From contig SVSZ01000004.1 of the NCBI GenBank assembly GCA_015064025.1, positions 1 through 43,903 of the forward strand: a stretch of 43,903 bases of DNA, read 5' to 3'. The notes beneath the pieces are model-generated. The model saw nothing but the letters and a program-made list of their open reading frames with translations, did no database searches and was not told the origin of the DNA. Position 1 is the stretch's first letter; each line of letters opens with the position of its first letter. This document shows positions 3,141 to 42,804 of this stretch, piece after piece. A program made the position numbers and the translations under genes. This stretch comes from Oscillospiraceae bacterium. Its GTDB lineage: Bacteria > Bacillota > Clostridia > Oscillospirales > CAG-272.

Positions 3141-3207
3141 TTTGTTCCTCCAAAATATATTTCATTCATTTATTTTTCGTATTTTCTTTTCGTGTTTTCA
3201 TTTTCCA

Positions 3208-3900
3208 TCACGGCTCAAACAGTGCGCGTCCGACACGCACGATGTCCGCTCCCTCTTCAATGGCAACCTCGAAGCTCTCCGACATTCCCATCGACAAAAT
3301 AGGCCTACCTATATTATGAAGTTTTTTTTGCCAAATGTCAAGACATAATTGCGAAGTTTCTCGAAAATATTTTCGATAATCCTCTTTTTTTTCGCATTTC
3401 GGTGCCATGGTCATAAATCCGCGCAATCGGATGTGCGGATATTTGACAAGTCCCTCACAAAATTCTGCCGCCGCATGTGGGGAAAGTCCGCTTTTGTTTT
3501 CCTCCTCACCGCTGTTGATCTCAACCAGAACGTCCATCACAAGTCCGTGCCTCGACGCCTGTTTTTCGATCTCCGCGGCAAGGCTCTCACTGTCAAGCGA
3601 ATGAATGAGAGACACCTTATCGATGATATACTTGACCTTATTGCTTTGCAGCTTCCCTATAAAATGAATCCGAAGCCCCTCACGATCCAACGCATCCCAA
3701 CGTTCAAGCAGCTGCTGCACGCGATTTTCTCCCACGTCGCACACCCCAAGCGCGCGGTGCAAATAGTTGACGTGCTCCGTATCCGTATATTTGATTGCCG
3801 CCACAAGCGTTACGTCGCGACCGCCCACACGGGCTGCCGCGGCACCGATCCGCTCACGAATCCCTTGCACGTTTCGGTCCATATAAGACAGATCGCTCAT
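3208..3900 (-). CDS. yggS: YggS/YlmE PLP homeostasis protein
   Basis: LVAAIKY, GENRVQ, HFIGKLQSNKVK, IHSLDS, GFMTMAP, LSMGMS and VRVGRALF motifs; start ATG 3900 coupled to the upstream TGA. Confidence 0.93.
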   Translation of the reverse strand: MSDLSYMDRNVQGIRERIGAAAARVGGRDVTLVAAIKYTDTEHVNYLHRALGVCDVGENRVQQLLERWDALDREGLRIHFIGKLQSNKVKYIIDKVSLIHSLDSESLAAEIEKQASRHGLVMDVLVEINSGEEENKSGLSPHAAAEFCEGLVKYPHIRLRGFMTMAPKCEKKEDYRKYFRETSQLCLDIWQKKLHNIGRPILSMGMSESFEVAIEEGADIVRVGRALFEP

Positions 3901-5205: not shown

Positions 5206-6180
5206 TCATTCCGACGCAAGACTTTCGTCCGCGCCGTTCCAAAGCTTCAAAACCTCATCCGCAACATCTTCCGTCCGACGCACGGTACCATCGCGCTCCA
5301 TATCGATCCTACGGACGTAATCCTTAGCGCCAAACCACGTCAATTGTCGCTTGGCATAGTGACGCGTCGCCCGTACAAGTCTCTCACGCGAGCACGCAAG
5401 CGTTTCCTCGCCGTGCAGATACGGCAAAAGCTCCTTGTATCCGATCGCTTGCGCCGCAGTGGAATTGGTAAGAAATACCCCTGCCTCCTCCAAACGCCTT
5501 GTTTCCTCAACAAGACCGCCCTGAAGCATCGCGTCCACACGGCGCTCGATCCGTGAATAAAGGATCTCTCTCGTGGGATAGAAGAGTCCTACGACCATTG
5601 CGGCAAAGGGAGCTTCCATCGTCTGCGTCCTTTGATCCGCCTCCGTTTTCGTCATTCCCGTGCTCTCATAGATCTCCAGCGCACGCATCACACGCTTGAC
5701 ATTGTTTTCATGGATCGCTTCGGCACTCACGGGATCCACCTCGCGCAGGCGCTCGTGAAGTGCGCGCGCACCGTGGTCGGTAAGGTAACGCGTTAGGCGC
5801 TCCCGTACTGCGGGATCATTCCCTGTCGTTTCAAAGCCTCCGCGCAAAAAGCTGTCCAGATACAGCCCCGTGCCACCGCAAAAAACGGGCACTCGCCCAC
5901 GGGAGAGAATATCCTCCACCGCCTCGCGCGCAAGAGCAACGTACTCTGCCGCGGAGAACGGCGTATGCGCATCGGCAATGTCGATCATGTGATGAGGGAT
6001 CCCGTCCCTTTCCTTTTCGGTCGGTTTTGCCGTACCTATGTCCATACCGCGATAGACCTGCATGGAATCACAGGAAACGATCTCCCCACCGAGCTCCTTT
6101 GCAAGAGCGATGGAGAGAGCGGTTTTTCCGCTTGCGGTCGGTCCCACAATGGCAAGAATTCTGCTTTTTTCACACCGCAT
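5206..6180 (-). CDS. miaA: tRNA dimethylallyltransferase
   Basis: GPTASGKT, DSMQVYRGMDIGTAKP, GGTGLY, AIGYKE and TRHYAKRQLTWF motifs. Confidence 0.97.
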   Translation of the reverse strand: MRCEKSRILAIVGPTASGKTALSIALAKELGGEIVSCDSMQVYRGMDIGTAKPTEKERDGIPHHMIDIADAHTPFSAAEYVALAREAVEDILSRGRVPVFCGGTGLYLDSFLRGGFETTGNDPAVRERLTRYLTDHGARALHERLREVDPVSAEAIHENNVKRVMRALEIYESTGMTKTEADQRTQTMEAPFAAMVVGLFYPTREILYSRIERRVDAMLQGGLVEETRRLEEAGVFLTNSTAAQAIGYKELLPYLHGEETLACSRERLVRATRHYAKRQLTWFGAKDYVRRIDMERDGTVRRTEDVADEVLKLWNGADESLASE

Positions 6181-6241
6181 GCCCCGAAAGCCTCCTTCTC
6201 CGCGCGGAACGCACCGAATTAAGTTTTAATATATATTTATT

Positions 6242-6270
6242 ATTATACTATACTGCTGCGCGTTTGTCAA
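6242..6270 (-). promoter_or_regulatory. Sigma-A promoter of the miaA operon
   Basis: TTGACA (6270-6265) - 17 bp - TATAAT (6247-6242), perfect consensus. Confidence 0.8.
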
Positions 6271-6380
6271 GACACACCACAGGATTATTTCATGCAAAGC
6301 GGAATTCCGGATTTCTCACAAAAACGCACGCTTCGAAAAAAATCATTTTTTGTTTGGAAGCAAAAAGCGGCTTTTTTGAC

Positions 6381-6409
6381 TTGCAATCCTTCTTTTTTTG
6401 TGCTATGAT
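6381..6409 (+). promoter_or_regulatory. Sigma-A promoter of fumC
   Basis: TTGCAA - 17 bp - TATGAT with extended -10 TG. Confidence 0.6.
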
Positions 6410-6468
6410 ATATAATGTCTCCGCAAAGCATTTTGCTTTGCCAAGTTTTGAAAGGACGAAATGCCGAA

Positions 6469-7845
6469 ATGAATTACCGAATCGAGCACGATTCCATGGG
6501 CGAGGTAAAGGTCCCCGCCGACCGTTACTGGGGCGCCCAGACCGAAAGAAGCCGTAACAATTTCAAAGCAGGCGTTGGGCATGAAGAAATGCCCGATGAG
6601 ATCACCCGTGCCTTTGGAATTCTAAAAAAGGCGGCAGCGCTGGCAAACCACGACCTGCGACCGCAAAAAATGACCGATGAAAAATGCCGTATGATCTGCA
6701 CGGTCTGCGATGAGATCACAAGCGGTGCACTTTCATCTCATTTTCCGCTTGTTGTTTTCCAGACAGGCTCGGGAACGCAGTCCAACATGAATGCAAACGA
6801 GGTCATTGCCAACCGTGCAAATGAAGCGAAGGGCACTGTGCTTTTACACCCGAACGACGACGTCAATATGTCACAGTCCTCCAATGACACCTTCCCCACC
6901 GCCATGCACATCTCCGCGGTGCTTTCCGTTCGCGAATCTCTTCTTCCCGCGCTTGACACGATGATCGCAACCCTTGACCGTCTTGAGCATGAAAACGAGG
7001 ACGTCATCAAGTGCGGAAGAACGCATCTGCAGGATGCAACGCCTATTCGCTTTTCACAGGAGATCTCGGGATGGCGCTCCTCCCTTACAAAGGATCGCGA
7101 GCTGATCGAGCGTTCTCTGGAGCCGCTTTATGAGCTGGCACTCGGAGGCACGGCGGTCGGCACAGGTCTCAATGCACCCGCAGGCTTCGACGAGGCGGTA
7201 GCACGCGAGGTCGCGTCGCTCACCTCCCTTCCCTTCAGAACAGCGGAAAACAAATTTCACGCACTGACCTCAAAAAACGAGATGGTCTTCTCTCACGGAG
7301 CGTTGAAGGCACTGGCGGCGGACCTTTGGAAGATCGCCAACGACGTCCGTTGGCTCGCCTCGGGACCGCGCAACGGTCTTGGGGAGATCTTCATCCCCGA
7401 AAACGAACCCGGCTCCTCCATCATGCCGGGAAAGGTCAATCCCACCCAATGTGAAGCGGTCACGATGGTCGCCGCACAAGTCATGGGAAATGACACGACC
7501 GTGGGGCTTGCCGCATCGCAGGGCAACTTCGAGCTCAACGTATTTATGCCCGTGCTCGCATACAATTATCTGCAATCCGTAAGACTTCTTTCCGACGTTA
7601 TGCACTCTTTTGAGGAGCACTGTGTGCGCGGGATCGTTGCCAACAAAGCAAGGATGAAACAAAATCTGACCGATTCTTTGATGCTGGTCACCGCGCTGAA
7701 TCCCTATATCGGCTATGAAAACGCCGCAAAAACCGCAAAGCTCGCCTTTCGCGAGGGAATCACTCTCAAGGAGGCTTGCGTGCGTCTCGGATTCTTAACT
7801 GCGGAAAAATTCGACGAGGTATTTCACCCAGAGGAAATGGTTTGA
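6469..7845 (+). CDS. fumC: Class II fumarate hydratase
   Basis: RIEHDSMG, WGAQT.RS, QTGSGTQSNMN.NEV, SQSSNDTFPTAMH, GRTHLQDATP and GSSIMPGKVNPTQCEA signature. Confidence 0.96.
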   Translation: MNYRIEHDSMGEVKVPADRYWGAQTERSRNNFKAGVGHEEMPDEITRAFGILKKAAALANHDLRPQKMTDEKCRMICTVCDEITSGALSSHFPLVVFQTGSGTQSNMNANEVIANRANEAKGTVLLHPNDDVNMSQSSNDTFPTAMHISAVLSVRESLLPALDTMIATLDRLEHENEDVIKCGRTHLQDATPIRFSQEISGWRSSLTKDRELIERSLEPLYELALGGTAVGTGLNAPAGFDEAVAREVASLTSLPFRTAENKFHALTSKNEMVFSHGALKALAADLWKIANDVRWLASGPRNGLGEIFIPENEPGSSIMPGKVNPTQCEAVTMVAAQVMGNDTTVGLAASQGNFELNVFMPVLAYNYLQSVRLLSDVMHSFEEHCVRGIVANKARMKQNLTDSLMLVTALNPYIGYENAAKTAKLAFREGITLKEACVRLGFLTAEKFDEVFHPEEMV

Positions 7846-19024: not shown

Positions 19025-19807
19025 ATGTTTCAAAATCTCGGACTTCAGATGTTCACCGTTCGCGACTTTATCACCGATCCCGAATTCGCAGACCTTTCCT
19101 TCCGCCGCCTCCGCGAGCTCGGCTACACAGAGACGCAGCTGGCAGGACATGCATTTGATGCAAAGCTCTTCGGCGAGCTTCTTGCAAAGAATGGTATCCG
19201 CGTCGTAGGCAACCACTGCTCTCTTGATGACATCATCAACCGTCCCGACGAGACGATGGAAAAGCATCGCATGTGGGGCACTTCCAACCTCGGTATCGGC
19301 GGCATTCCTCATGAGGCACGTGCAGGAGTCAAGGAGCTTGCAAAATTTATCGATACCTACAACAAGGCAGCAGAGGTATACGCCAAGGAGGGCTTTAAGC
19401 TGACCTTCCACAACCACAACTATGAGTTTGAGCCTATCGACGGCTGCAAAACTCCGATGGAGATCTTCGCCGAGGAATTTGATCCTAACAACATCTCCTT
19501 CGTTCTTGACACCTGCTGGGTAGCGGCAGGAGGCGCCGACGTGCGCGCATGGATGGAACGTCTTGCGGGACGCATCGATATTCTCCACCTCAAGGATCTT
19601 GAGGCAACCAAAGTTGCCAATGCAAGAAGCCCCGAGTTCAACGTCACCGAGATCGGTAACGGCAACCTCTACTGGGACGGCATTATGGAGACTGCGGAAA
19701 AGATCGGCGTTAAGTATTACGTCGTTGAACAGGACAACAACTTCAAGGGCACTCCCTTTGACAGTCTCCGCATGAGCGCAGAATACCTTAAGAAGTATCA
19801 GAAGTAA
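19025..19807 (+). CDS. Sugar phosphate isomerase/epimerase (xylose-isomerase-like TIM barrel)
   Basis: GLQMFTVRD, FHNHNYEF, LDTCW, LHLKD, EIGNG and YVVEQD metal-binding motifs. Confidence 0.9.
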   Translation: MFQNLGLQMFTVRDFITDPEFADLSFRRLRELGYTETQLAGHAFDAKLFGELLAKNGIRVVGNHCSLDDIINRPDETMEKHRMWGTSNLGIGGIPHEARAGVKELAKFIDTYNKAAEVYAKEGFKLTFHNHNYEFEPIDGCKTPMEIFAEEFDPNNISFVLDTCWVAAGGADVRAWMERLAGRIDILHLKDLEATKVANARSPEFNVTEIGNGNLYWDGIMETAEKIGVKYYVVEQDNNFKGTPFDSLRMSAEYLKKYQK

Positions 19808-19809
19808 CT

Positions 19810-19863
19810 TATAAACAAACGGCGCATGGAATGCAATTGCATTCCATGCGCCGTTTGTTTATA
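19810..19863. terminator. Perfect 54-bp palindrome, probable bidirectional terminator
   Basis: TATAAACAAACGGCGCATGGAATGCAA followed directly by its exact reverse complement; lies between convergent stops. Confidence 0.75.
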
Positions 19864-19872
19864 TAAAAGCTT

Positions 19873-20085
19873 TCATCGGTTAATTTCAGGATTTTCGGTG
19901 CGACACATAATATAGTCCATGCTGACGTTATAATAGTTCGCCAACAAAATCAGAGTTTCTGTGGGAGGAATTCTCTTGCCGCTTTCATACTTAGAAAGAA
20001 GAGCTTGTTCAATTCCCGTTTCCAATTGCACGTTCAATTGCGTCTTTTTTCTTTGCAGTCGTAACGCTTTCAAATTCGTTTGCAA
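19873..20085 (-). CDS. XRE-family helix-turn-helix transcriptional regulator
   Basis: LKALR..RKKTQ..V....GI.Q..LSKYESGKR.P....LI.LA.YYNVS.DYI; TTG start with GGGAGG RBS. Confidence 0.92.
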   Translation of the reverse strand: MQTNLKALRLQRKKTQLNVQLETGIEQALLSKYESGKRIPPTETLILLANYYNVSMDYIMCRTENPEINR

Positions 20086-20102
20086 GAAATCCCCTCCCTT
20101 CT

Positions 20103-20219
20103 ATATGACATTTTATCATATTATTCCGCTCCTAAATATGACGCTATGTCATATCGCACAAATTATTTGAGATATTTTTGTGAATTATGCGAATTGAAAA
20201 ATATGACAATTTGTCATAT
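20103..20219. promoter_or_regulatory. Three palindromic operators ATATGAC-N5-GTCATAT
   Basis: 20103-20121 (one mismatch), 20136-20154 and 20201-20219 (both perfect), between the divergent XRE gene and its operon. Confidence 0.8.
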
Positions 20220-20222
20220 AAT
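20194..20222 (+). promoter_or_regulatory. Sigma-A promoter of the islet operon, overlapped by operator 3
   Basis: TTGAAA (20194-20199) - 17 bp - TATAAT (20217-20222). Confidence 0.75.
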
Positions 20223-20247
20223 TTTTAAAAAGCAAAGGAGAAAAAGC

Positions 20248-21273
20248 ATGCAATTTCTGTCTGTTTTAGCCCCACTATTTTCATTTTTGTTATGGGTGGG
20301 CATAATTGTCGGGATTATTACTTTTAGGAAGCAAAGAAAAAAGAAAAAGGAACAACAGCTCCAAAACGACTTTAAAATTGCTCTGGAAAAGCATATTCAG
20401 TCTATGGAAAACAACTCTGCTATGTTTAGAGATTGCTATTCAACACTTGCAAAGGGACTGGGTGTTAATTTGAAAGAGGTGGACACAATGCTTCCCTCTT
20501 TGAATGCTATGAAAGAACATTATGCCTCTGTTTTGGAAGATCTTATTTCCATAAGTGATCATAATCTCTGCCTTTATGACAAAGAAAAACTCAAAAAAGT
20601 GAAATCTGAATCCCTTCCTACCAATGAACAAATATCAAACCATATTATTGAAATTCTTCCCCTGCTTGGAAATTATTACGAAATATACAACGTATTGAAG
20701 AAAGACATTTATGACGACTTATTCTTTAATAAAATATACGCGCTTAACTATATGGCATTTCAACTTTTCCATGAGAACAGAGAAGAAATGGACGAGCAAA
20801 AAAAGAAGTTATACGATTCGGATGTTGAAGTATTTTATGAACGGGTAGATGGACTTTACGATATCGAAGTCGAAATTTTCGTTCCACGCTTTTTGAAGTC
20901 AAGCGGTATGAAGATTGCAAATACGGAAAAATACGTTAAGTTACTTATTGATATCGGGAAAAAGCACGAACCAAGTTACTCAAAATTTAGAATTCTTTGG
21001 ATAAAGCATATGCAAGAAATTGCTAAACCATACATTTCGGCAGGCATGGATTTGTACCGATTTTTTAAAGAAAAAAGTGAAATTCAAGAGAATTTGCTTC
21101 CCTGCTTAAATTTTCATCTCGGCTTTGAAACTCTCAATTATCTGTATATCCCCTCCACAGGGCGCACCAAGGAAAACTGCCAAAAATTATTAGACCTCTA
21201 CACTTCCAAAAAAGCAAGCGGCGAGCTGTTTAGTTGGAAATATGAGGAATATCTTTCAAACGGAAGCATATAA
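20248..21273 (+). CDS. Hypothetical membrane-anchored protein (341 aa)
   Basis: AAGGAG RBS; N-terminal TM helix then RKQRKKKK; long open frame in AT-rich DNA; no recognised domain. Confidence 0.8.
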   Translation: MQFLSVLAPLFSFLLWVGIIVGIITFRKQRKKKKEQQLQNDFKIALEKHIQSMENNSAMFRDCYSTLAKGLGVNLKEVDTMLPSLNAMKEHYASVLEDLISISDHNLCLYDKEKLKKVKSESLPTNEQISNHIIEILPLLGNYYEIYNVLKKDIYDDLFFNKIYALNYMAFQLFHENREEMDEQKKKLYDSDVEVFYERVDGLYDIEVEIFVPRFLKSSGMKIANTEKYVKLLIDIGKKHEPSYSKFRILWIKHMQEIAKPYISAGMDLYRFFKEKSEIQENLLPCLNFHLGFETLNYLYIPSTGRTKENCQKLLDLYTSKKASGELFSWKYEEYLSNGSI

Positions 21274-21296
21274 AACAAGTACGAAAGGAAATATTA

Positions 21297-21569
21297 GTGG
21301 AAATTTTAAGAGGAAGCGCAGGATCAGATATCGCATACAGAATCATTAACAACGACATTGTCTTTGGAAGTAGCGGATATGATATAGCCTATCGCATCAT
21401 TAATAATGACATTGTCTTTGGAAGCAGTGGATATGATGTTGCATATCGCGTTTGTGGGAACGATATCGTACGCGGTTCATCCGGATATGATATTGTGTTT
21501 CGCATCAGCGGAAGAGATATTCTTTTGGGTGCAAGCGGATATGACATCGTATACAGAATCCAATATTGA
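21297..21569 (+). CDS. Hypothetical 90-aa protein made of five 18-aa repeats (possible beta-flower-like fold)
   Basis: Five units of xDIxxGSSGYDIxYRIxx; AAAGGA RBS and GTG start; synonymous differences between units. Confidence 0.8.
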   Translation: MEILRGSAGSDIAYRIINNDIVFGSSGYDIAYRIINNDIVFGSSGYDVAYRVCGNDIVRGSSGYDIVFRISGRDILLGASGYDIVYRIQY

Positions 21570-21584
21570 AAGGAGATAGATTTC

Positions 21585-21767
21585 ATGTGTCCTTACTATT
21601 CAAGAGAATACAAAATTTGTAAAATTTATAAAACACTGTATCGTGAAGGAGAATATCACACGGATGCCTACTGTATGGAAATGAGATACGACCATACACA
21701 ATGCCCCAATTATAAAGAATGCATGAAAAACAACAACGGCATTATACCACCACCTTATAAATTCTAA
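21585..21767 (+). CDS. Hypothetical Cys-rich 60-aa protein
   Basis: AAGGAG RBS; five Cys and two His (CPYY..C..YC..CPNY..C); followed by a terminator. Confidence 0.7.
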   Translation: MCPYYSREYKICKIYKTLYREGEYHTDAYCMEMRYDHTQCPNYKECMKNNNGIIPPPYKF

Positions 21768-21769
21768 TC

Positions 21770-21822
21770 ACAAAAAGCAGCATACCGAATCAACGTTCTT
21801 GATTTGGTATGCTGCTTTTTGT
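21770..21822. terminator. Bidirectional intrinsic terminator
   Basis: ACAAAAAGCAGCATACC / GGTATGCTGCTTTTTGT. Confidence 0.8.
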
Positions 21823-21827
21823 TAACA

Positions 21828-22994
21828 TTAAAGATTTTTCAAAAAACATCCCACGCGGCGCAATGCCTCGCGGATATGATCGGTGGAATAGCAATAGGAC
21901 GCGCGGACAAAGCCCTCACCCCCAAGGCCAAATGCAGTTCCGGGAACAAGCGCTACGCGCTCCGCGTAAAGAAGCTTTTCGCAAAATTCATCCGAGGTCA
22001 TACCCGTAGAACGGATGCACGGGAAGGCATAGAACGCCCCCTTCGGCTCACGGCAAACAAGCCCCAGCTTATTAAAGCCGTCCACGATCAATCTGCGGCG
22101 CATGTCGTATTCCTCGATCATATCCGCAACTGCATCGTCTCCGTTACGCAAAGCCTCAATGGCAGCATACTGCGAGGTCGTAGGGGCACACATGATGGCA
22201 AACTGGTGGATCTTTGTGACCTGCTTTAAGATGGGCGCGGGACCGCAGGCAAAACCAAGTCTCCAGCCCGTCATGGAAAAGGTCTTCGAAAAACCGTTGA
22301 CAAGCACGCATCTATCCTGCATCCCTTCAATGGAAGCAATGGAAACATGCTTCTCTCCTCCAAAGGTCAATTCCGCATAGATCTCATCCGAAATCACCAG
22401 CACGTCAGTGCCGCGCAAAACTTGTGCGATCGCCTCCAGATCTGCCCTTTCCATAATGGCTCCCGTCGGATTGCAGGGATACGGAAGGATGAGCGCCTTG
22501 GTGCGCGGCGTGATTGCCGCCATAAGCTCCTCGGGCGTCACCTTAAAATCGTTTTCAGCCTTTGTCTCAATGATCACGGGCGTGCAACCGCACAAACGAG
22601 CGATCGGCTCGTAGCAAACGTAGCTCGGCTGTGGAATGATGATCTCATCCCCGGGACAGGCAATGGCACGGATGCAAGCGTCGATCGCTTCCGATCCGCC
22701 GACCGTGACGAGCACCTCACCCTTTGCCTCGTAATGCACACCGTATTTTCTTTCCACATAGCGGCAGATCTCCTCGCGAAGAGACTCCAGTCCGCTGTTC
22801 GAGGTATAGCGGGTTTTTCCGTTTTCAAGAGAGGCAATACCCGCCTTGCGGATCTCCCACGGCGTCGCGAAATCGGGTTCACCCACACCTAAAGAGATCA
22901 CACCCTCCATGCTCTCTGCGATATCAAAGTATTTACGGATGCCGGAAGGCTTGATCCCGACAACCGTTGGGGAGAGAATCCTTGTGTAATCCAT
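21828..22994 (-). CDS. PLP-dependent aminotransferase class I/II
   Basis: ISLGVGEPDF.TP, YPCNPTG, SDEIYAEL and NGFSKTFSMTGWRLG (PLP Lys); ATG coupled to the Lrp stop. Confidence 0.93.
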   Translation of the reverse strand: MDYTRILSPTVVGIKPSGIRKYFDIAESMEGVISLGVGEPDFATPWEIRKAGIASLENGKTRYTSNSGLESLREEICRYVERKYGVHYEAKGEVLVTVGGSEAIDACIRAIACPGDEIIIPQPSYVCYEPIARLCGCTPVIIETKAENDFKVTPEELMAAITPRTKALILPYPCNPTGAIMERADLEAIAQVLRGTDVLVISDEIYAELTFGGEKHVSIASIEGMQDRCVLVNGFSKTFSMTGWRLGFACGPAPILKQVTKIHQFAIMCAPTTSQYAAIEALRNGDDAVADMIEEYDMRRRLIVDGFNKLGLVCREPKGAFYAFPCIRSTGMTSDEFCEKLLYAERVALVPGTAFGLGGEGFVRASYCYSTDHIREALRRVGCFLKNL

Positions 22995-23476
22995 CACAGC
23001 AGATAGCTCCCTCTTTCATCTCTGTCCTCGCCCAAAAGCTCCACGTCCAGCTCCTTGTAACGGCGCAGTACAAAGTGTGTAGCCGTTGAGGTCACGGATT
23101 CGATGGTGGAAAGCTCCTTTGCAACAAATTTTGCAACCTCCTGAAAGGTCTTTCCCTTTACCACCACGTTCAAGTCGTACACACCCGACATCAAATAGAC
23201 CGATTCCACCTCGGGATATTTCATCACTCTTGCCGCAACGTCCTCAAAGCCAAGCCCCGCCTTGGGCGTCACCTTCAACTCAATGATCGCGGAAACGTAG
23301 GCACTATCCAGCTTATCCCAGTCAATCACCGCTTTATATCCGCGGATCACACCTGCCGCTTCAAGCTCCGCAACCTCGCGGCGCACCTCGTCCTCGCTGA
23401 TACCTAACATCACGGCGAGATTCTCGGGCGGTGTGCGTGAATCCTTATTCAACAGCTTCAAAAGTTTCTTGTTCAT
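22994..23476 (-). CDS. Lrp/AsnC family transcriptional regulator
   Basis: N-terminal HTH (LE..GVI.GY) and RAM domain (PEVESVYLMSG.YDL, T.THFVL). Confidence 0.92.
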   Translation of the reverse strand: MNKKLLKLLNKDSRTPPENLAVMLGISEDEVRREVAELEAAGVIRGYKAVIDWDKLDSAYVSAIIELKVTPKAGLGFEDVAARVMKYPEVESVYLMSGVYDLNVVVKGKTFQEVAKFVAKELSTIESVTSTATHFVLRRYKELDVELLGEDRDERGSYLL

Positions 23477-24137: not shown

Positions 24138-25490
24138 TCATTCCGCAATTTTACGCGGAAGCTTTAAAAAGACAAGGTCGCCGTAATCAAGTCCTACTGT
24201 ACGGACGGTTTCGTTTGTCTTACGGTTCTGCCACGCATCACAAAGCTCAATTTTTTTATGTCCGTGTCCCACGTTGGAAACACAGAGATACACATCCTCA
24301 TTGACAAAAAGGCTTGCGTGCACCCCCTCGGGAAGTTGCCCCTTGACGATCCCGTTTTCTCCAATGTCGATCAGAGCAAGGGAATCCTCCTTCACCATAG
24401 GGCGATACAAAGCGAGATAATCAAACCAACGTGCCCGCGCGTGCACGTCATCGGGAATATCCGACCATTCACTATAAGAGTAAGGTCCGTTTGGATGCTC
24501 CTCATACCATTTGCGCATTTTTTCAAAATGAAGCGTTTCGTTATTCCCCGGATTGTTGATATATTCCACGCCGGGAACAAACGCACGCTCCCCTGTTACA
24601 GGTCTTCCGTCCGTACGAAGCAAAAACTGCATCATGGGAATCGCCATGGCATAAAATGCGTCCGTGTTTTTTTCCTCTACAAAACGATAATCGGGATTGA
24701 CGATCACGTAAGGATCAAATTTTGCCGTCTCCAAAAGATCGGACGCACGGCGTACGCATTCGCCGACCCATAAATAATCGTACACGCGACTGTACGTTTT
24801 GGGAGCCACGCACTGTCCTTGATGGATCTTGACAATGCCTCCGCGCTTCTTCACCATAGTATATACCCTTGACAGAATATCTTCAAAGAAAGGGTCGTAT
24901 TCCAGATAACCGAATTCGGGAGCACCCGTGCATCCGTATCCCATATCATTGTAAAGACCGTCAAATTCGTAATCGTCAAGAAGCCTTTCCAGCTTCGGCA
25001 TGAGAAAATCATTCCATTCTGCCGACGCCGCATCACAGCAACGGTAGCGGTAGTAAAATGCATTGAGCTCATAGACACCGTGCTGCGAAAAGTTTTCCGT
25101 GAACTCGGGATCTCGCCAATCAAAAAAGCCCGTGGAAATATAAGGGAGCACCTTGATGCCGAAATCATGGCAAAGCTTGATAAACTCGCGCAACCCCTCT
25201 GGATCGTGAGAGTTGTATTTGTCCGCCCCCAAAAGTCTTTGAGAATCATTCCACTCCTCGTGAAGCTGAATAAGTCCCACGCCCTTTTCCGAAAGGCATT
25301 TGATCAAATTGTAATCGTATTCTGTCGGACGAATAGAAAAGCGTGACGGATATTCACCGAGATTATAGGTCACCTGTCCCGGAATATAATCTTTAATTCT
25401 TTCGCGTCGGGCACATCCCTTTACCCGTTCCTGTGCAAATTTCAATGCCTCAAAGCGGGCTTTGTAATCTTCAACCGTGTAAATGTTCAT
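24138..25490 (-). CDS. Uncharacterised TIM-barrel glycoside-hydrolase-like protein
   Basis: GV.LIQLHEEW, LREFIKLCHDFGIKVLPY and FDGLYND pattern of retaining (beta/alpha)8 GHs, with a beta-rich C-terminus; GGAGG RBS at 25490. Confidence 0.65.
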   Translation of the reverse strand: MNIYTVEDYKARFEALKFAQERVKGCARRERIKDYIPGQVTYNLGEYPSRFSIRPTEYDYNLIKCLSEKGVGLIQLHEEWNDSQRLLGADKYNSHDPEGLREFIKLCHDFGIKVLPYISTGFFDWRDPEFTENFSQHGVYELNAFYYRYRCCDAASAEWNDFLMPKLERLLDDYEFDGLYNDMGYGCTGAPEFGYLEYDPFFEDILSRVYTMVKKRGGIVKIHQGQCVAPKTYSRVYDYLWVGECVRRASDLLETAKFDPYVIVNPDYRFVEEKNTDAFYAMAIPMMQFLLRTDGRPVTGERAFVPGVEYINNPGNNETLHFEKMRKWYEEHPNGPYSYSEWSDIPDDVHARARWFDYLALYRPMVKEDSLALIDIGENGIVKGQLPEGVHASLFVNEDVYLCVSNVGHGHKKIELCDAWQNRKTNETVRTVGLDYGDLVFLKLPRKIAE

Positions 25491-25589
25491 TACGGCACCT
25501 CCATCCTGGATTTGTTTCTCCAACATTCTATCACCCGGCTTTGAAAAGTAAAAGTACCGTTCTTGGCAAAAAGATTGCAAATATTGACT

Positions 25590-25973
25590 TTATTCCGCAT
25601 TTACTTGCAGATACGCAAGCGTAAACAATTCAGCGATCCTTTCATATCTTCCCGCCAGATGCAAAAAACCGAACAGAGACTCCATTCCCGTTGCCATACG
25701 GTAATCGCTGACGGTAGCATGCTTCGGCACACTCGAATGCCCGAGATTTCTTCCGCGGCGGAAATACCCCTCCTCTTCCTCGCTCAAAAGAGGAAGGATT
25801 CGCTTCATCGCCTCTGCCTGTGCGGACGCACGAACAAAGGAAAGCGCCGCCTCGTTCAGGTGCCCCGATGTGGAAAGTCCCTCATTGACAAGGTGACTGC
25901 GCACCTGCATTTCAAGCACACAATCCCCAAGGTACGCCAGTGCCTGTGTACTGACCTCTCTTACATCGATCAT
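25590..25973 (-). CDS. mrnC: Mini-ribonuclease III
   Basis: ALAYLGD.V.E..VR, V.A.AQA, L.EEE...RRGRN and Y..ATG.E.L.G.L motifs. Confidence 0.92.
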   Translation of the reverse strand: MIDVREVSTQALAYLGDCVLEMQVRSHLVNEGLSTSGHLNEAALSFVRASAQAEAMKRILPLLSEEEEGYFRRGRNLGHSSVPKHATVSDYRMATGMESLFGFLHLAGRYERIAELFTLAYLQVNAE

Positions 25974-26698
25974 GCGTCCCCCTCCTCGGAAGAGACGTCG
26001 GCATTTTTTTCCTTTCCTTTTTTATCATCCTTTTTTTCCTTGGTCTCTTTGGTGTTCTTCTGACGCTTTGCCTCTGCCTTTTGCTCTGCCTTCTGGCGCT
26101 TTACCTCCTCCTTTTCCTGCTCCTCACGTACCTTTTCGTCAATGAGCTCGGGGTAATGCGCGGAAAGCAAAAGCTGTACGGTATTTTTCAAATAAGAGGA
26201 CATTGCGCAAAGCCCCAGAAGAAGGGTAAGGAAATCTCCCTCGTCCTCCACGTTCAAGCGCGCATCCTCTGCAAAGCGCTTGATCTGATCCCACGCATTC
26301 ACTCTTTCAAGCTCCTTAAGTGATAGGTAGTTTGAATAGATCTCCTCAAGCATACGGGAGTCATATGCCTCATGTCCGTAAAGATTCTGCAGGATCCTCT
26401 TTATTTCACCGATGGAAAGCGTGTTCTTCATTTCATAGACGAGAAGCATCTGCAAAATGTGCTCCTTGCTGTATTTTTTTCCCTTAATGGGCGAGAGCAG
26501 GCCGTCCTTGGAATAATTGTTGATCATCGTTTTCGTCAGCACGCGATCCTCAAAATGCTTTGACGCCTCACGCTTTTTTTCCAAAACCAGACTGGTGATC
26601 TGATCCAGGTACAGGTCGATCGACGGAATCTCGGACGGGTGCAGGTCTGCGTCCTGTGTCGCTTCCCTTACCAGCCGTTCCATTTCCGCAATATCCAT
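25970..26698 (-). CDS. DUF1836 domain-containing protein
   Basis: IPSIDLYLDQIT, LTKTMINNYSK.GL, KKYSKEH and LSI.EIK motifs; Lys/Glu-rich tail; start 26698 (AAGGAG) or 26749. Confidence 0.85.
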   Translation of the reverse strand: MDIAEMERLVREATQDADLHPSEIPSIDLYLDQITSLVLEKKREASKHFEDRVLTKTMINNYSKDGLLSPIKGKKYSKEHILQMLLVYEMKNTLSIGEIKRILQNLYGHEAYDSRMLEEIYSNYLSLKELERVNAWDQIKRFAEDARLNVEDEGDFLTLLLGLCAMSSYLKNTVQLLLSAHYPELIDEKVREEQEKEEVKRQKAEQKAEAKRQKNTKETKEKKDDKKGKEKNADVSSEEGDA

Positions 26699-27075: not shown

Positions 27076-27696
27076 TTAGCGCTGCTGCTGGAGGGTGTAG
27101 TGAACGTCGAATGCCTTCTCCTCATCCGTATACTTGCGGAGGGTGTTGATGGTCTCGCCGTTGTTCCACTTTCTGTCGCCAACGTCCTCTGTGGTACCCA
27201 TAACGGTAACGTTGAGCTGTCTGTGACGCGCGCGAACGTGGTCCCAGTCGATGAAGTAAACGTGTGCGAATTCGCCGCCGTCAAGAACACCGTCCTTGAT
27301 GGTCATCGTTTCACTTCTGCCGAAGAACACACTGCGCAGATGTCCGTCCGTGTTCATGGAGGTGTAATCACCGGGCTCGTTGACATATCTTCCGAACTGA
27401 GAGTGGATCGGACCGGGATGACGGTACTGATGCTCCTCTGCAAAATCGGGGATCATCTTTCTCATGATGTCAAGCAGATCGTGCTGGAGATATTCCAGAT
27501 CGAAGCTGTCGATGTCGTGAGAGCACTCCTGGATCATCACGGAGCAGGTGGTGTGGTGAGACGCGATGGTAACGGTACCGTTCTTGATACCGGAAGCCTG
27601 TACGATCTCAATGATTTCCTTGGAAACGTCGTGGAAGGTGGGGATCCAGCCTCTGGACTGAAGCTCCAGCTCCTTTTGAAATACCTTGAATTCCAT
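27076..27696 (-). CDS. yjbQ: YjbQ/UPF0047 family protein (extended)
   Basis: SGIKNG.V....HTTCS..IQE, Y.H, N..GHLRS...G.S....I.DG.L..G....VYF.D.D..R.R motifs. Confidence 0.82.
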   Translation of the reverse strand: MEFKVFQKELELQSRGWIPTFHDVSKEIIEIVQASGIKNGTVTIASHHTTCSVMIQECSHDIDSFDLEYLQHDLLDIMRKMIPDFAEEHQYRHPGPIHSQFGRYVNEPGDYTSMNTDGHLRSVFFGRSETMTIKDGVLDGGEFAHVYFIDWDHVRARHRQLNVTVMGTTEDVGDRKWNNGETINTLRKYTDEEKAFDVHYTLQQQR

Positions 27697-27735
27697 ATGT
27701 ATATTCTCCTGTATAGTTATTTTTGTTGGCTTCGA

Positions 27736-28710
27736 TCAATAGCCGACCTTTTCCCAGCATTCGAACGGAGCTGCAAGCTCTTCGGAAATATAGACCTGGG
27801 TCTTCTTCGTCTGGAGCATGGTGCTGGGGAGGTAAGGCGTGATAGGTCCGTGTGTGCAGAGACGGCTGGTCATTCTCTGCCAAGAGGAGAAGGTACCGCA
27901 GGTTGCCAGTGCGTGAACCTCAATTCTCTCCTTTGCACGCATCACATCGAGAGGACCGATGGTAGCAGCGCAGGGAGGAACGTTTGCAATGTCACCGGAC
28001 TGACCGAAGGTTCCGTTGAGGGAGTTCTGCATGATGGTCATGGGGTGAAGCTTTACGATCTGTGCGGGCTGGTTGAGCCACTCCTCGATATCACCGCTGC
28101 CGATGAACTCGGGAATCGGATCAACGAATGCCATGTGGCCTGCCCATCCGGGAGAGGTGGAAGCGATGTCCGCACCGGTTCCCTCGGTGATATCATCGAT
28201 GATCTTGGAATAATCCTTGATGTTGGCATTGGTCGGGAAGTGAACGTTTTCCATGGGCATACGAAGCTTCTCATCGATCTGATAGTAAAGGTACTTGATC
28301 ATGGAGTGCGCAAAGCCTGCCTCATAGGTAATGGGGGCGATGTTGCCGTCCTGATCTGCCCACTCATCCTCTGCAACAAGGTGAACCTTGGAGCAGTCAA
28401 CCTTGAAGTAGTTGATCAGCTGTGCCAGAGGAATGTAGGTATCGGGCTCGGGGTTACCGAGGATCATTGTGAAGCTCTTGCCTGCCTCGCTTGCTGCCTT
28501 GAGGCGTGTGAAGAGGGTGGAAATGAGAACGGGGTGGGGATTCATCATCACCTTGACCTCGAATTCGGGGTGCCACCAAGCTTCTCTCTTCTCCAGGTCC
28601 TTGCCGCTCAGACTGCGGACGTACTCGCACACCTTCTTGTCCTTGAAGGGCACGAACTCGTGAGGCTGGAAGTCAAACTTCGTTGCGGGATCGGTAATAA
28701 AGTTGCTCAT
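27736..28710 (-). CDS. Divergent glucosamine-6-phosphate deaminase/isomerase (NagB)-like protein
   Basis: VHLVAEDEW (cf. TFNMDEY), NVHFP, GADI...PGWAGHMAFVDP (cf. GIG.NGHIAFNEP), A.TIG...M.AK and GPIT...P.T.LQ. Confidence 0.75.
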   Translation of the reverse strand: MSNFITDPATKFDFQPHEFVPFKDKKVCEYVRSLSGKDLEKREAWWHPEFEVKVMMNPHPVLISTLFTRLKAASEAGKSFTMILGNPEPDTYIPLAQLINYFKVDCSKVHLVAEDEWADQDGNIAPITYEAGFAHSMIKYLYYQIDEKLRMPMENVHFPTNANIKDYSKIIDDITEGTGADIASTSPGWAGHMAFVDPIPEFIGSGDIEEWLNQPAQIVKLHPMTIMQNSLNGTFGQSGDIANVPPCAATIGPLDVMRAKERIEVHALATCGTFSSWQRMTSRLCTHGPITPYLPSTMLQTKKTQVYISEELAAPFECWEKVGY

Positions 28711-28750
28711 GTTTGTCTCCTTTGTTTATATATTTTTTAATAATTTAAAA

Positions 28751-34466: not shown

Positions 34467-35878
34467 GTTACGTTTGCTTGGAGGCTCAGCGGATTCCACC
34501 GTCCGCTGAGGTAGTAAAAGGAAAACATACAAAACATTGCAAGATTATGCGCGATCATACACGCCCATGCCGCAATCAACCCCATATCGAGCATTTGCGT
34601 GCAGACAAAGGTTCCCACAATGCGGATCGCCCACATTCCAAAGAGATTGCAGACAAGGGGCATCACAGTACGTCCCATGCCCTGCATCATTCCCTCCACT
34701 ACAATGGAAACGCCGTAAAACGGCTCGGAGAGTGCCACCATGCGAAGCACGGCGCTCCCAAGTAGGATCACCTGCGCATCGCCGGAAAACAGCTTCATCA
34801 TCCCGGGGGCTAAAAGGAAGAGAAGCCCGCCCGACAGGATCATCAAAAGCACCTCAAGAAATAGGATCAACCTTCCAAGCCCCACAAGCCGTTCCCGATC
34901 CTTGGCACCGTACGCGTTCCCCGCAAGAGTCGCCGCAGCAGTCTGCATACCGTAGCCGGGAATATAAAAGGCGGATTCCACCGTGTTGGCAATGGTATGC
35001 GCCGCCGTAGCGATTCCCCCCAGGGAATTGACCATCGCCGCAAAGACCACATACCCCAAGCAAGTACCAAAGCGCTGCGCCGCGTTGGGGAGCGCCACTC
35101 GGAAGCAGGCGGAGAGAATCGTGCGGTCGGGACAAAAGGAGCATCCAACGGGGGAGAGCGCAGGATGGCGAAAAACCGCCACCGTAATGGCAATACCGCC
35201 CACCGTGTACGCGATCGCGCTGGCAATCGCCGCACCGATGACACCAAGCCCCGCTCCCGGCATTGTGAAGTGAAATGAGAAAACGGAAATCTCGCGTGTG
35301 GGGTAAATCATCAGAAAATTGAGGATCACGTTGATCACGTTCACAATCAGCCCGACAAGCATCGGGGTTTTGGTATCCCCCGCTGCCCGCAGAACCGTTC
35401 CCAGAATTCCGCTTGCGGTACGCGCCAGCATCGGCAGATAAAGGATAAAAAAGTATTGTGAAGCAATCGGACGGATGTGCTCCTCCGCCTGCATCCACGT
35501 GGGGATCACACCGCTCAAAGACAAGGCAAGCACCGTGAAAAAGCCCCCTACCGCCAAGACAGCCAGCATCGCCTGTGCGGTTGCTCTTCGGGAGGCGTTC
35601 ACGTCTCCCGCGCCGTTTGCACGCGCAATATAGGAAAGGAAGCCCACACCGATGGCTGAAACTGTACTGAAGATCAGCCAGTTGACCGTGGTAGTTGCCC
35701 CCACCGCTGCCACCGCGTCGGTTCCGAGCGTACCGACCATCGCGGTGTCGATGTATTGCACCGCCGTTTGTAAAAGCTGCTCCAGCATCGTAGGCCAGGC
35801 AAGCCCCAGGATCACGGGAAGAAGCCCCCACGGGATCTTTTTTTTCGTTTTGTCCACCGCATTACAAGATGTTGCCAC
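34460..35878 (-). CDS. MATE family efflux transporter
   Basis: LAWP...EQ.L...V..IDTAMVG.LG..A.AAVG, LRAAGDTKTPM and LGV.GAA.A; GTG start after AAGGAG (start uncertain). Confidence 0.9.
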   Translation of the reverse strand: MATSCNAVDKTKKKIPWGLLPVILGLAWPTMLEQLLQTAVQYIDTAMVGTLGTDAVAAVGATTTVNWLIFSTVSAIGVGFLSYIARANGAGDVNASRRATAQAMLAVLAVGGFFTVLALSLSGVIPTWMQAEEHIRPIASQYFFILYLPMLARTASGILGTVLRAAGDTKTPMLVGLIVNVINVILNFLMIYPTREISVFSFHFTMPGAGLGVIGAAIASAIAYTVGGIAITVAVFRHPALSPVGCSFCPDRTILSACFRVALPNAAQRFGTCLGYVVFAAMVNSLGGIATAAHTIANTVESAFYIPGYGMQTAAATLAGNAYGAKDRERLVGLGRLILFLEVLLMILSGGLLFLLAPGMMKLFSGDAQVILLGSAVLRMVALSEPFYGVSIVVEGMMQGMGRTVMPLVCNLFGMWAIRIVGTFVCTQMLDMGLIAAWACMIAHNLAMFCMFSFYYLSGRWNPLSLQANVTS

Positions 35879-38120: not shown

Positions 38121-38162
38121 TTTCCTCCTATCAAACAGAAAACCGTGTCGGCTTCCAAACCC

Positions 38163-38191
38163 ATTTTATCACAGGTTCCTTTCTTTGTCAA
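38163..38191 (-). promoter_or_regulatory. Sigma-A promoter of GH78-MATE
   Basis: TTGACA - 17 bp - TAAAAT with extended TG. Confidence 0.7.
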
Positions 38192-38192
38192 C

Positions 38193-38241
38193 AAAAAGCC
38201 GCCTTGATGATCCGATTTTTGGGGATCGCCAAGACGGCTTT
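38193..38241 (-). terminator. Terminator of the ABC exporter operon
   Basis: AAAGCCGCCTTG / CAAGACGGCTTT stem just after the stop, with a T-tail on the minus strand. Confidence 0.65.
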
Positions 38242-42585: not shown

Positions 42586-42804
42586 CCTTTTCGTCGGATC
42601 AAGACCTCGCTTTATGGTTATCATGGGTATCATTGTTACACATGAAAGTGAGATTGGCGACGCACATTAATATCAGCAAAAAAAGGGCAGGCTCAGAAGA
42701 ACGCATGAGCCGCCCCTTATAATTGCCAATTTAAAAATCACGGCTTGCGGAGACAAAAAGCCCCTGTGCCTCCGTCGCCCTCATATAAAGGAAAGGTAGA
42801 AACG

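Follow-up and report, generated by a model that had tools for sequence, protein, structure and literature searches.

A small, probably XRE-controlled islet with unusual cargo genes in the genome of an Oscillospiraceae bacterium

Results

The islet and its boundaries

The window analysed here, a 43,903-nucleotide stretch from an Oscillospiraceae bacterium, contains an islet of about 2 kb, in which the gene of an XRE-family repressor and a three-gene operon are enclosed by two strong hairpins. From left to right, the features are:

19810..19863, no strand assigned: left boundary hairpin, 27-nt arms, 100% complementary
19873..20085, minus strand: XRE-family repressor, 70 aa, lone HTH domain, TTG start behind a GGGAGGGG ribosome-binding site
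20103..20121, no strand assigned: predicted operator O1, 19-bp palindrome with one mismatch, adjoining the XRE start
20136..20154, no strand assigned: predicted operator O2, perfect 19-bp palindrome, from the palindrome search
20194..20222, plus strand: predicted operon promoter, TTGAAA-17 nt-TATAAT, 11 of 12 consensus matches, the best in the region
20201..20219, no strand assigned: predicted operator O3, perfect 19-bp palindrome, filling the promoter spacer and extending into the -10 hexamer
20248..21273, plus strand: 341-aa protein, ATG behind AGGAG
21297..21569, plus strand: 90-aa repeat protein, GTG behind AAGGAA
21585..21767, plus strand: 60-aa “MCPYY” protein, ATG behind AAGGAG
21770..21822, no strand assigned: right boundary hairpin, 24-nt arms, 96% complementary

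The islet has a G+C content of 35.4%, against 52.1% for the rest of the window. Measured over 300 nt at a time, G+C lies at 0.30-0.40 across 19800-21899 and at 0.49-0.58 on either side. The GC3 values follow the same pattern, with 34-44% in the four islet genes versus 62-65% in the flanking isomerase, aminotransferase and AsnC genes.

Folded as RNA, the left hairpin reaches -43.4 kcal/mol on each strand (z -11.6 and -12.0), and the right hairpin -35.7 and -33.2 kcal/mol on the two strands (z -9.2 and -8.7). For both, none of 200 shuffles reached an equal folding energy. Judged by these predicted folds, the left hairpin can act as an intrinsic terminator in both directions, for the isomerase gene on the plus strand and the XRE gene on the minus strand, and the right hairpin can do the same for the operon (plus) and the aminotransferase gene (minus). 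A simple terminator scan, limited to at most 20 stem pairs and loops of 3-8 bases, missed both.

No integrase or transposase family was detected among 35 window ORFs outside the islet (8 scanned at E ≤ 1e-5 and 27 at E ≤ 1e-8), nor in the four islet proteins; three ORFs of at least 110 aa (6027-6557, 25563-26063 and 41998-42465) lay outside this mobility scan. Because the scanned ORFs hold no further defence or mobility gene either, the window is not a defence island. No direct repeats were found flanking the islet, and thus no insertion scar.

In the genomes of 40 relatives, the islet DNA was unmatched except for two short weak matches. The left flank (RNase H, isomerase) never adjoins the aminotransferase in any relative examined, and the sequence after the aminotransferase varies among them from species to species. 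Logan contigs from four fecal runs contained pieces of the islet without differences; none of these contigs spans the islet, and no empty site was seen among them. Among 78 genomes of the genus, the MCPYY gene was found in that of the window alone; in the order, it was found in two of 401. Because of the deviant G+C and GC3, the lack of a match in relatives, and the rarity of the MCPYY and 341-aa families, the islet is, as far as sequence can tell, foreign and horizontally acquired DNA. The original prediction of an AT-rich islet with bidirectional terminators at both ends, lacking an integrase or transposase and acquired horizontally, is therefore borne out, and the islet does not belong to the core content of the relatives.

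Repressor, operators and promoter

The repressor aligns with the full length of the Pfam model HTH_3 (PF01381, positions 1-55 of 55), scoring 52.7 bits where the cut-off is 23 (E 4.3e-14), and it matches PHROG 8, a transcriptional regulator (E 4.2e-16). Among solved chains, the closest is 7t8i, the Xre-family regulator of ICEBs1 (E 4.7e-6). The PADLOC matches, to capH (E 1.7e-5) and to a control protein (E 0.021), are both generic HTH matches, and matches to NCBIfam antitoxins fall far below their cut-offs. The gene is divergent from the three-gene operon across a gap of 162 bp, so that layout and HTH_3 match agree with the divergent XRE repressor that had been proposed.

The motif ATATGACN5GTCATAT, with up to two mismatches, has three copies, all inside 20103-20219, against an expectation of 0.12, and none of 100 shuffles gave three. 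Across the bacterium's own genome, the 17-base operator core has five copies, as does the reversed control; the significance of the operator signal lies only in the clustering of the sites. A DNA match to the operator region on contig C117 of the same genome, located before an AraC-type gene, is due to chance.

O1 and O2 sit beside the XRE start, where O1 overlaps a weak candidate -10 hexamer of the XRE gene, and O3 sits inside the sole strong promoter. This arrangement supports the suggested control of the operon by XRE. With XRE dimers on O3, RNA polymerase would be blocked at the promoter of the operon; through O1 and O2, XRE would limit its own synthesis; and a signal removing or titrating XRE would switch the operon on. 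The module is thus probably a self-contained accessory unit, silent by default.

In several respects the window's repressor resembles the lone-HTH XRE repressors known from mobile elements and the controllers of restriction-modification systems, such as ImmR of ICEBs1 and the C-proteins. It is likewise a single HTH_3 domain of 70 aa, it is divergent from the genes that it would control, and several palindromic operators overlap promoters. Unlike for ImmR-type and restriction-modification controllers, however, the window contains neither an ImmA-type protease nor a CapP-type peptidase nor restriction-modification genes.

Immunity regions typically combine a divergent layout with three operators. 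The islet could hence be what remains of the immunity switch of a mobile element (a prophage, a satellite or an ICE) that has decayed, in which XRE is a repressor of the CI/ImmR type, MCPYY a Cro-like protein or anti-repressor, and the membrane protein a leftover of superinfection exclusion or a moron. The window has this very layout, and the relationship with the ICEBs1 regulator, with which the PHROG and RstR-type matches agree, points the same way. We nevertheless regard such an origin as unlikely, given what is seen at the other loci (see below).

The 341-aa helical protein

The first gene of the operon encodes a protein with a predicted N-terminal transmembrane helix, followed by a Lys/Arg cluster and an elongated all-helical domain. 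Since no charge precedes the anchor and seven Lys/Arg follow it, the positive-inside rule would put the helical domain on the cytoplasmic side, lying against the membrane. The family, with 24 distant relatives at 22-34% identity, is sparse and fast-diverging. It was found in three of 401 genomes of the order, in two of these only marginally (E 2.6e-4 and 7.3e-4), and in one of 399 genomes of the class. A hydrophobic N-terminus followed by basic residues recurs in 20 of the 25 aligned members, and the best-conserved region is a C-terminal patch, with E310, C311, R313, L317, Y318 and G325 in 68-92% of rows.

No family match was found in Pfam or NCBIfam, none in PADLOC at E ≤ 1 and no PHROG at a meaningful E-value, and a word-indexed search returned only the self-match. 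The AlphaFold2 model (pLDDT 92.7, pTM 0.82) had no Foldseek match at E ≤ 0.001 in the PDB, where the top hit was the ClyA pore (E 0.23), and none at E ≤ 0.001 in BFVD. The likeness to ClyA was rejected, as a wide VIA-align comparison (Z 7.2, rmsd 12.9 Å) fell within the range of unrelated helical bundles. As modelled, the fold is confidently predicted, yet unmatched by any solved structure.

The 90-aa repeat protein

The second protein consists of exactly five 18-residue units without caps (period-18 self-identity 0.68), as the original prediction had counted them. Units 1 and 2 differ by seven synonymous and two non-synonymous codon changes, and the units show purifying selection. The sole detectable relative, P0013, aligns to 91% of the query at 50% identity (E 1.7e-11). 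The structure is either one of repeated beta-hairpins, as in beta-flowers, or a beta-roll resembling that of RTX proteins.

RTX nonapeptide repeats (PF00353) form a beta-roll, and their consensus has a Gly-rich calcium-binding turn, a Gly-Gly start and an Asp in every nonapeptide. The window's protein passes the corresponding Pfam model, HemolysinCabind, with 30.8 bits against a cut-off of 23, the best single stretch covering residues 54-66 only. A profile made from it and P0013 matches the RTX blocks of solved hemolysin/adenylate cyclase chains (E 1.4e-5), and its low-confidence ESM Atlas model (pLDDT 0.55) superposes on RTX proteins with a TM of 0.77-0.84. The 18-residue unit can be read as two nonapeptides, each with G/N-x-D and then hydrophobic residues, and one nonapeptide per unit (G-S-S-G-Y-D) conforms to the consensus. 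Other traits are unlike RTX. Every second nonapeptide opens with R-I/V in place of Gly-Gly and carries N or G, then D, and P0013 has Lys or Met at the calcium-binding Asp position of the second nonapeptide half. Furthermore, the protein is only 90 aa long, without a flanking domain or secretion signal, it belongs to a Gram-positive host, and no type I secretion gene adjoins its own.

Beta-flower proteins, represented in Pfam by PF21784, PF21785 and PF21786 (clan CL0395), have been described by Durairaj et al. 2023 (PMC10584680) as carrying a [DNEQ]xxG tip motif. Like them, the window's protein is small and made up solely of short, near-identical, hairpin-sized repeats in an integer number (five). 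P0013 passes Bflower_3 (39.6 bits against a cut-off of 34), and proteins resembling Bflower_2 are encoded in two further MCPYY modules. The AlphaFold2 model shows antiparallel hairpins, but it is poor (pLDDT 43). Five exact cap-less units would suit the closed barrel of 4-6 hairpins that defines beta-flowers. On the other hand, no Bflower model matches the repeat protein at E ≤ 1, Bflower_3 and Bflower_2 found nothing in the whole of its own genome at E ≤ 10, and a profile comparison with the Bflower_2 protein of locus L016 was not significant (E 0.4). Also unlike beta-flowers, the protein has no [DNEQ]xxG tip motif that we could see and no C-terminal hydrophobic helix.

The 60-aa MCPYY protein

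The third protein has a twin Cx9C spacing (C2, C12, C30, C40) and a conserved PPP-x-KF tail. Its relatives form eight clusters with 48-98% identity, and 21 of the 60 columns are invariant. The C2-C12 and C30-C40 pairs are invariant in all nine aligned sequences, and in a divergent member from genome G124 the second Cys pair is Cx7C. No Pfam family matched at E ≤ 1, none was found in NCBIfam or PADLOC, no PHROG at a meaningful E-value, and no PDB sequence at E ≤ 10. The ESM Atlas gave no usable lead (top score 0.84), and the sole locus from a metagenome scan was, when read, not that of a relative. MCPYY is the marker gene of a rare module family.

Twin Cx9C (CHCH) proteins belong to the mitochondrial intermembrane space (PMC4571295). 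MCPYY has two Cys-x9-Cys pairs and a similar size, but matches no Pfam or PDB sequence, which makes this a likeness of spacing only. In addition, MCPYY is bacterial. Because it is presumably cytoplasmic and its host an anaerobe, disulfides are unlikely. MCPYY may bind a metal and act jointly with the other two cargo proteins.

The three cargo proteins had all been called unknown. This stands for the 341-aa and 60-aa proteins, which remained unmatched, but not for the repeat protein, which passes the RTX cut-off and has a beta-flower relative. None of the cargo falls into a housekeeping family in the Pfam and NCBIfam searches.

The module in other genomes

Five MCPYY loci were read, namely the window, L014, L015, L016 and L028. 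A divergent HTH_3 gene lies beside MCPYY in four of them, and no XRE adjoins it at L028. A short hairpin-repeat protein is encoded within 1 kb of MCPYY in three (window, L016 and L028); it matches Bflower_2 above the cut-off at L016 (E 7.8e-12) and below it at L028 (E 7.8e-5). All five modules are AT-richer than their own flanks, and relatives of MCPYY mark comparable small islets in further gut Clostridia. Gene order and partner genes vary between loci. At L014-L016, MCPYY directly follows the repressed promoter and has a conserved leader; across these three loci it is conserved far better than the XREs, and the operators all differ. The L015 module adjoins a tRNA-Asn, and also fragments of PDC-S14, a defence candidate (E 1.4e-26 and 1.1e-11).

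The helical family is absent from the genomes of L014, L015 and L016, and from G124, which is apparently part of the 401-genome order sample, so that the window's three-gene set is not fixed. A 349-aa protein at L015 and a 237-aa protein at L014 were ruled out as relatives (E 0.13 and 0.097). Elsewhere, the helical and MCPYY families have equal-sized longest contigs from the same sources, with strong cases at 55,192 (P0017/P0074) and 24,629 (P0031/P0055, both NCBI), and weaker ones at 3,765, 1,910 and 1,181. The equal contig sizes suggest that at least two helical relatives share a contig with an MCPYY gene; the three weaker coincidences, on short contigs, may be due to chance. Within the two strong pairs, identity to the window's proteins is by our count about 60% and 78% for MCPYY, and it is 29.8% and 21.7% for the helical partners. 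This faster divergence of the larger protein could mean mere weaker constraint.

The homologues thus do co-occur, a point on which the original prediction depended. Since MCPYY recurs with XRE and hairpin-repeat genes, the cargo genes are not random orphans. It is very improbable that they have no joint function and are small genes captured independently, sharing nothing but a repressed promoter. The varying gene order and partner set, as well as the lack of the helical family in four of the five MCPYY genomes read, would fit independent capture. This would, however, leave unaccounted for the repeated company of XRE and hairpin-repeat genes, the tight packing of the window's operon genes (15-23 nt apart, each with its own ribosome-binding site), the purifying selection on the repeat units and the many invariant MCPYY columns.

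The other loci also bear on the relic immunity switch. Its proponents could point to the leading position of MCPYY behind the repressed promoter and conserved leader in L014-L016, and to the tRNA beside the L015 module. Against it, no integrase, excisionase, replication or structural gene was found at any of the five loci, and neither family was matched in IMG/VR contigs (for the 341-aa family, with the subset of closer relatives), GenBank phages or PLSDB plasmids. Moreover, the islets are compact, with clean terminators at their ends, and the far better conservation of MCPYY than of XREs and operators is a poor fit to a repressor-binding role.

The apparent sharing of contigs raises another alternative, a toxin-antitoxin-like pair in which a membrane-tethered helical toxin is neutralised by MCPYY, with XRE adding transcriptional control. 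We take this to be comparable in outline to SpoIISA/SpoIISB of Bacillus. The conserved C-terminal patch of the helical family could dock a conserved partner, and tight repression suggests a harmful product. Such a pair is still improbable, because L014, L015, L016 and L028 have MCPYY but no member of the helical family, no toxin-antitoxin family was matched, and the repeat protein is left without a role. The repressor is also divergent and not the first gene of a toxin-antitoxin operon. From type II systems with an XRE antitoxin the window differs in that XRE is not co-transcribed with the cargo and no toxin family was matched in Pfam or NCBIfam.

A role in accessory physiology, for example as a membrane module for envelope stress, metal handling or a stage of sporulation that came from another lineage of gut Clostridia, has in our view only a slim chance of being right. 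The host is a spore-former, judged by its SpoIVB gene, and metal handling could be the task of the four-Cys protein. According to Durairaj et al. 2023 (PMC10584680), Tubby-like proteins either bind phosphoinositides or function as scramblases. A membrane anchor combined with a Tubby-clan-like repeat protein could act on lipids. An extremely patchy distribution, a foreign composition in every host and partner genes that differ from locus to locus all speak against a physiological role of this kind.

Discussion

Small repressor-gated islets are common bacterial carriers of dangerous cargo, such as defence systems and toxins. The islet described here is of an already known kind, and its cargo is new. 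The module is real but rare, so far unnamed, and recurs in a few unrelated gut bacteria.

We tentatively read it as a putative inducible conflict module, either an abortive-infection-type phage defence or a membrane effector of a related, toxin-like kind that is kept in check, and we would put the chances of this somewhat short of even. MCPYY would supply the constant element of such a conflict module, and the fast-diverging helical protein its variable element, the one facing the target. The anti-phage function suggested earlier gained no backing from PADLOC-DB 2.0, in which the 341-aa, 90-aa and 60-aa proteins matched no defence family at E ≤ 1; for this reason, phage defence is something that we infer. 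The cargo proteins likewise matched no toxin or defence family in Pfam or NCBIfam, and no PHROG at a meaningful E-value. For the L028 module PADLOC gave no match at all, and for the cargo proteins of L014-L016 only weak ones (E 0.012-0.063).

A parallel is offered by Cernunnos, an anti-phage system with a beta-flower domain from the chromosomal integron of Vibrio cholerae (bioRxiv 10.1101/2024.07.02.601686), and the sole experimental function that we found linked to the beta-flower fold. Like the window's module, it is described there as a small system without a classical defence domain. By its description, it differs in its 4-fold domain, its proteobacterial host, and its setting in an integron cassette or prophage. 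The available part of the description mentions no XRE, MCPYY or helical partner. Since the Bflower models miss the window's repeat protein, the parallel with Cernunnos rests on an unproven fold.

In its most specific form, the defence reading would make MCPYY, a helix-less beta-flower-type barrel and a membrane-tethered helical protein a new inducible anti-phage (abortive-infection) system of gut Clostridia. MCPYY would be a constant, metal-bound core docked on the barrel, perhaps replacing the central helix that other beta-flowers carry themselves. The fast-evolving helical protein would diversify and serve as the sensor or as a membrane effector. We put this forward as a speculation that is improbable in full detail. 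If true, it would provide the first mechanistic partner set for the beta-flower fold.

Two of the cargo families are nameless, and one of these has a confidently predicted fold unlike anything solved. The repeat protein borders on both the RTX repeats and the beta-flower fold, the biology of which is almost blank. Should expression show nothing, the islet would be merely another orphan. If the MCPYY/hairpin-repeat neighbourhood holds up, however, four genes in 2 kb make for a cheap and concrete experiment, which could give beta-flower-type proteins a function and partners, and might extend the defence repertoire of uncultured gut Clostridia.

A foreign, repressor-gated islet

The islet, about 2 kb long, is foreign to its surroundings, compact and gated by a repressor. 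Its G+C content is 0.30-0.40 against 0.49-0.58 on both flanks (300-nt windows), or 35.4% over 19867-21770 against 52.1% in the remainder of the window, and GC3 is 34-44% in the four islet genes as opposed to 62-65% in the neighbour genes. Its landmarks are as follows.

19025-19807, + strand: xylose-isomerase-like TIM-barrel gene, left neighbour of the islet
19810-19863, both strands: left boundary hairpin, 27-nt arms, perfect or near-perfect
islet, - strand: gene of the XRE protein, 70 aa, visible ribosome-binding site
20194-20222: operon promoter TTGAAA-17-TATAAT, 11/12 matches, the only strong promoter in the region
islet, + strand: gene of the 341-aa protein, visible ribosome-binding site
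islet: gene of the 90-aa protein, five 18-residue units, visible ribosome-binding site
islet: gene of the 60-aa protein (MCPYY), four invariant cysteines, visible ribosome-binding site
21770-21822, both strands: right boundary hairpin, 24-nt arms, perfect or near-perfect
21828-22997, - strand: class I/II aminotransferase gene, right neighbour of the islet

The boundary hairpins fold with -43.4/-43.4 (left, two strands) and -35.7/-33.2 kcal/mol (right), a strength reached by none of 200 shuffles; a simple terminator scan, with its limits on stem and loop, passed over them. Composition, hairpins and genes agree with the original prediction of an AT-rich, hairpin-bounded islet of four genes, with a ribosome-binding site for each gene of the operon, which was accurate wherever checkable. 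The predicted absence of integrase and transposase was borne out among the window genes scanned, and neither these nor a defence gene were found in the remaining window, which is ordinary chromosome. Three large ORFs in it, of 480 (24138-25580, - strand), 546 (27100-28740, + strand) and 851 aa (35652-38207, + strand), have no Pfam match at E<=1e-5 or 1e-8. The SpoIVB peptidase (S55) gene at 42745-43896 (+ strand) makes it probable that the host belongs to the spore-forming Clostridia.

The switch

The start of the XRE gene and that of the operon lie 162 bp apart, and in this gap one 19-bp palindrome occurs three times (at 20103, 20136 and 20201), compared with 0.12 occurrences expected over the whole window; none of 100 shuffles gave three. 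The third copy occupies the promoter spacer and extends into the -10 box, and the other two overlie the best, though weak, promoter candidates of the XRE gene. The XRE protein consists of a single HTH_3 domain (E 4.3e-14), has the Xre-family regulator of ICEBs1 as its nearest solved relative, and comes with no sensor or protease partner. Site geometry and the known behaviour of lone-HTH repressors suggest that it would bind the three palindromes, shut the operon and limit its own synthesis. The layout expected of an XRE-regulated operon, a divergent XRE gene with several candidate operators in the gap, was confirmed. We consider it unlikely that the islet is an immunity switch left over from a lost mobile element; searches of IMG/VR, GenBank phages and PLSDB plasmids gave no match to either MCPYY or the helical family (relatives of the 341-aa protein).

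The 341-aa helical protein

Pfam, NCBIfam, PHROGs and PADLOC gave nothing better than E 0.0045 for the 341-aa protein, and a word-indexed search returned the protein itself alone. An exhaustive HMMER search retrieved 24 cluster representatives, almost all of full length, which share 22-34% identity with the query. The alignment has just two invariant positions, N106 and L137 (P138, E183 and G325 are nearly so), and the best conserved patch is the C-terminal 30 residues. A hydrophobic N-terminal 19-mer followed by a Lys/Arg cluster is present in 20 of the 25 alignment rows. As the window protein carries no charge ahead of this helix and seven basic residues behind it, the positive-inside rule would place its large domain in the cytoplasm. 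The AlphaFold2 model, built with the family alignment, is confident and all-helical, with very long antiparallel helices (pLDDT 92.7, pTM 0.82), and has no significant structural match in PDB or BFVD. Top rows went to the ClyA pore and further long bundles, all at scores that the tools class as background. It is quite unlikely that this protein acts as a toxin at the membrane and the 60-aa Cys protein as its antitoxin.

The 90-aa repeat protein

The fold of the 90-aa protein is genuinely ambiguous between an RTX-like beta-roll and a beta-flower. It exceeds the Pfam RTX nonapeptide cut-off (30.8 vs 23 bits), its profile matches RTX blocks in solved chains (E 1.4e-5), and a low-confidence ESM Atlas model resembles a beta-roll. 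On the other side, the sole relative detected (P0013, 50% identity) counts as a member of the 6-fold beta-flower family at the Pfam cut-off and is missing the calcium-binding Asp from alternate nonapeptides, the units of the 90-aa protein number exactly five with no caps, and its AlphaFold2 model shows antiparallel hairpins at an unreliable pLDDT of 43. The protein itself matched none of the Pfam beta-flower models, and its alignment to the beta-flower protein in L016, another MCPYY locus, was not significant. Because hairpin-repeat proteins stand beside other MCPYY genes, we lean appreciably towards a hairpin barrel rather than a beta-roll, without filing the protein as a beta-flower member. 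With 7 synonymous and 2 non-synonymous codon differences between repeat units 1 and 2, the sequence is under selection at the protein level.

A module family marked by MCPYY

Relatives of MCPYY fall into eight clusters at 48-98% identity, and the protein matches no family or solved sequence. Of its 60 columns 21 are invariant, among them the MCPYY motif at the N-terminus, both Cx9C pairs formed by the four cysteines, and the tail PPP-x-KF. Five loci were read: the window, three from a pattern scan of one genome per species (L014-L016), and one (L028, from genome G124) from ~400 genomes of the order searched with a profile. All five modules exceed their flanks in AT content, four have a divergent HTH_3 gene with its own palindromes, and three (window, L016, G124) have a short hairpin-repeat protein <1 kb from MCPYY. 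The latter is a Bflower_2 member of 76 aa in L016 (E 7.8e-12), and in G124 an 80-aa protein 32 nt behind MCPYY, with a Bflower_2 E of 7.8e-5 that is below the cut-off. A second Cys-rich protein of 54 aa follows MCPYY in two loci (L014 4796-4960, eight cysteines; L016 3135-3299, six), and two contain a pair of related proteins of 349 and 179 aa. MCPYY thus keeps similar company in unrelated hosts, and it is highly improbable that the islet is a set of unrelated orphan genes.

A further Cys-rich ORF of 47 aa lies at L028 7741-7884; neither it nor the second Cys-rich proteins have a family match. The MCPYY leader, a short hairpin-like element, GTGAGAG(T/C)CAC, and then AAAAACAAAGGAGAAA, is nearly identical at L014 4515-4596, L015 1100-1146 and L016 2880-2924, loci that are otherwise divergent and differ in XRE genes and palindromes. 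The window MCPYY gene, last in its operon, does not carry this leader. In L028, the XRE position of the other loci is taken by ~460 G+C-rich nt (4530-4992) ahead of the divergent MCPYY gene; this stretch lacks a convincing ORF and matches nothing in Rfam.

No member of the helical family turned up in the L014-L016 genomes, nor in G124, which the order sample appears to include. The family seems to travel with closer MCPYY relatives, as judged from matching longest-contig sizes: 55,192 (P0017/P0074) and 24,629 (P0031/P0055, both NCBI) recur in both families with the same sources. Matches at 3,765, 1,910 and 1,181 are less telling, and chance agreement between short contigs is not unlikely with about fifty members per family. 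In the two strong pairs, MCPYY is about 60-78% identical to the window's protein, while its helical partner is 22-30% identical.

Distribution and genomic site

Within the genus, 1 of 78 genomes yielded MCPYY. Across the order, MCPYY turned up in 2 of 401 genomes and the helical family in 3 of 401 (two marginal); for the class, the helical family turned up in 1 of 399. Islet DNA had no match in 40 relatives except two short weak ones. Incompleteness is common among these genomes (the one that holds the window is 80% complete), so absence here means no hit in those searched. Logan contigs from four runs of animal feces carry islet pieces and junctions with zero differences.

Of 11 loci from the genus, 10-11 retain the right flank (PPIase, AsnC, aminotransferase). 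Gene content past the aminotransferase differs in each of them, and the islet's left flank is located elsewhere; the islet therefore sits at a variable junction where no empty site is demonstrable. Filled differently in each species of the genus, the slot on the 21828 side acts like a site of repeated insertion or rearrangement. In L009, one of these loci, an 88-aa membrane protein is encoded there within a stretch of 33% G+C.

Likely role

Small repressor-gated islets are of a familiar kind, and the cargo of this one is undescribed in the libraries searched. Of the suggested horizontally acquired, repressed system, foreign origin and gating were borne out; no PADLOC defence model matches the cargo proteins. 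This counts against defence, as do the window, which is not a defence island, and the tentative nature of the beta-flower assignment of the 90-aa protein. An accessory physiological function is improbable.

Next to the L015 module, two short ORFs of 66 and 81 aa match the C-terminal half of the PADLOC defence candidate PDC-S14 (E 1.1e-11 and 1.4e-26); directly following the module, they look like a broken gene. The entire L015 island, with these features at 2760-3223 and 148-222, adjoins tRNA-Asn and a four-helix protein of the 23S-rRNA-intervening-sequence type.

We tentatively favor a putative inducible conflict module, most likely an abortive-type phage defence acting at the membrane, because of the tight gating, the predicted membrane tether on the 341-aa protein, the pairing of one conserved with one fast-diverging partner, the PDC-S14 remnants, and Cernunnos, which is reported in a preprint as a validated anti-phage system with a beta-flower domain as its basis (bioRxiv 10.1101/2024.07.02.601686). 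Beyond this preprint, full-text searches found no literature on beta-flower protein function. Beta-flowers share one clan with Tubby domains, which bind or scramble phospholipids (Durairaj et al., PMC10584680), a tie that would fit action at the membrane.
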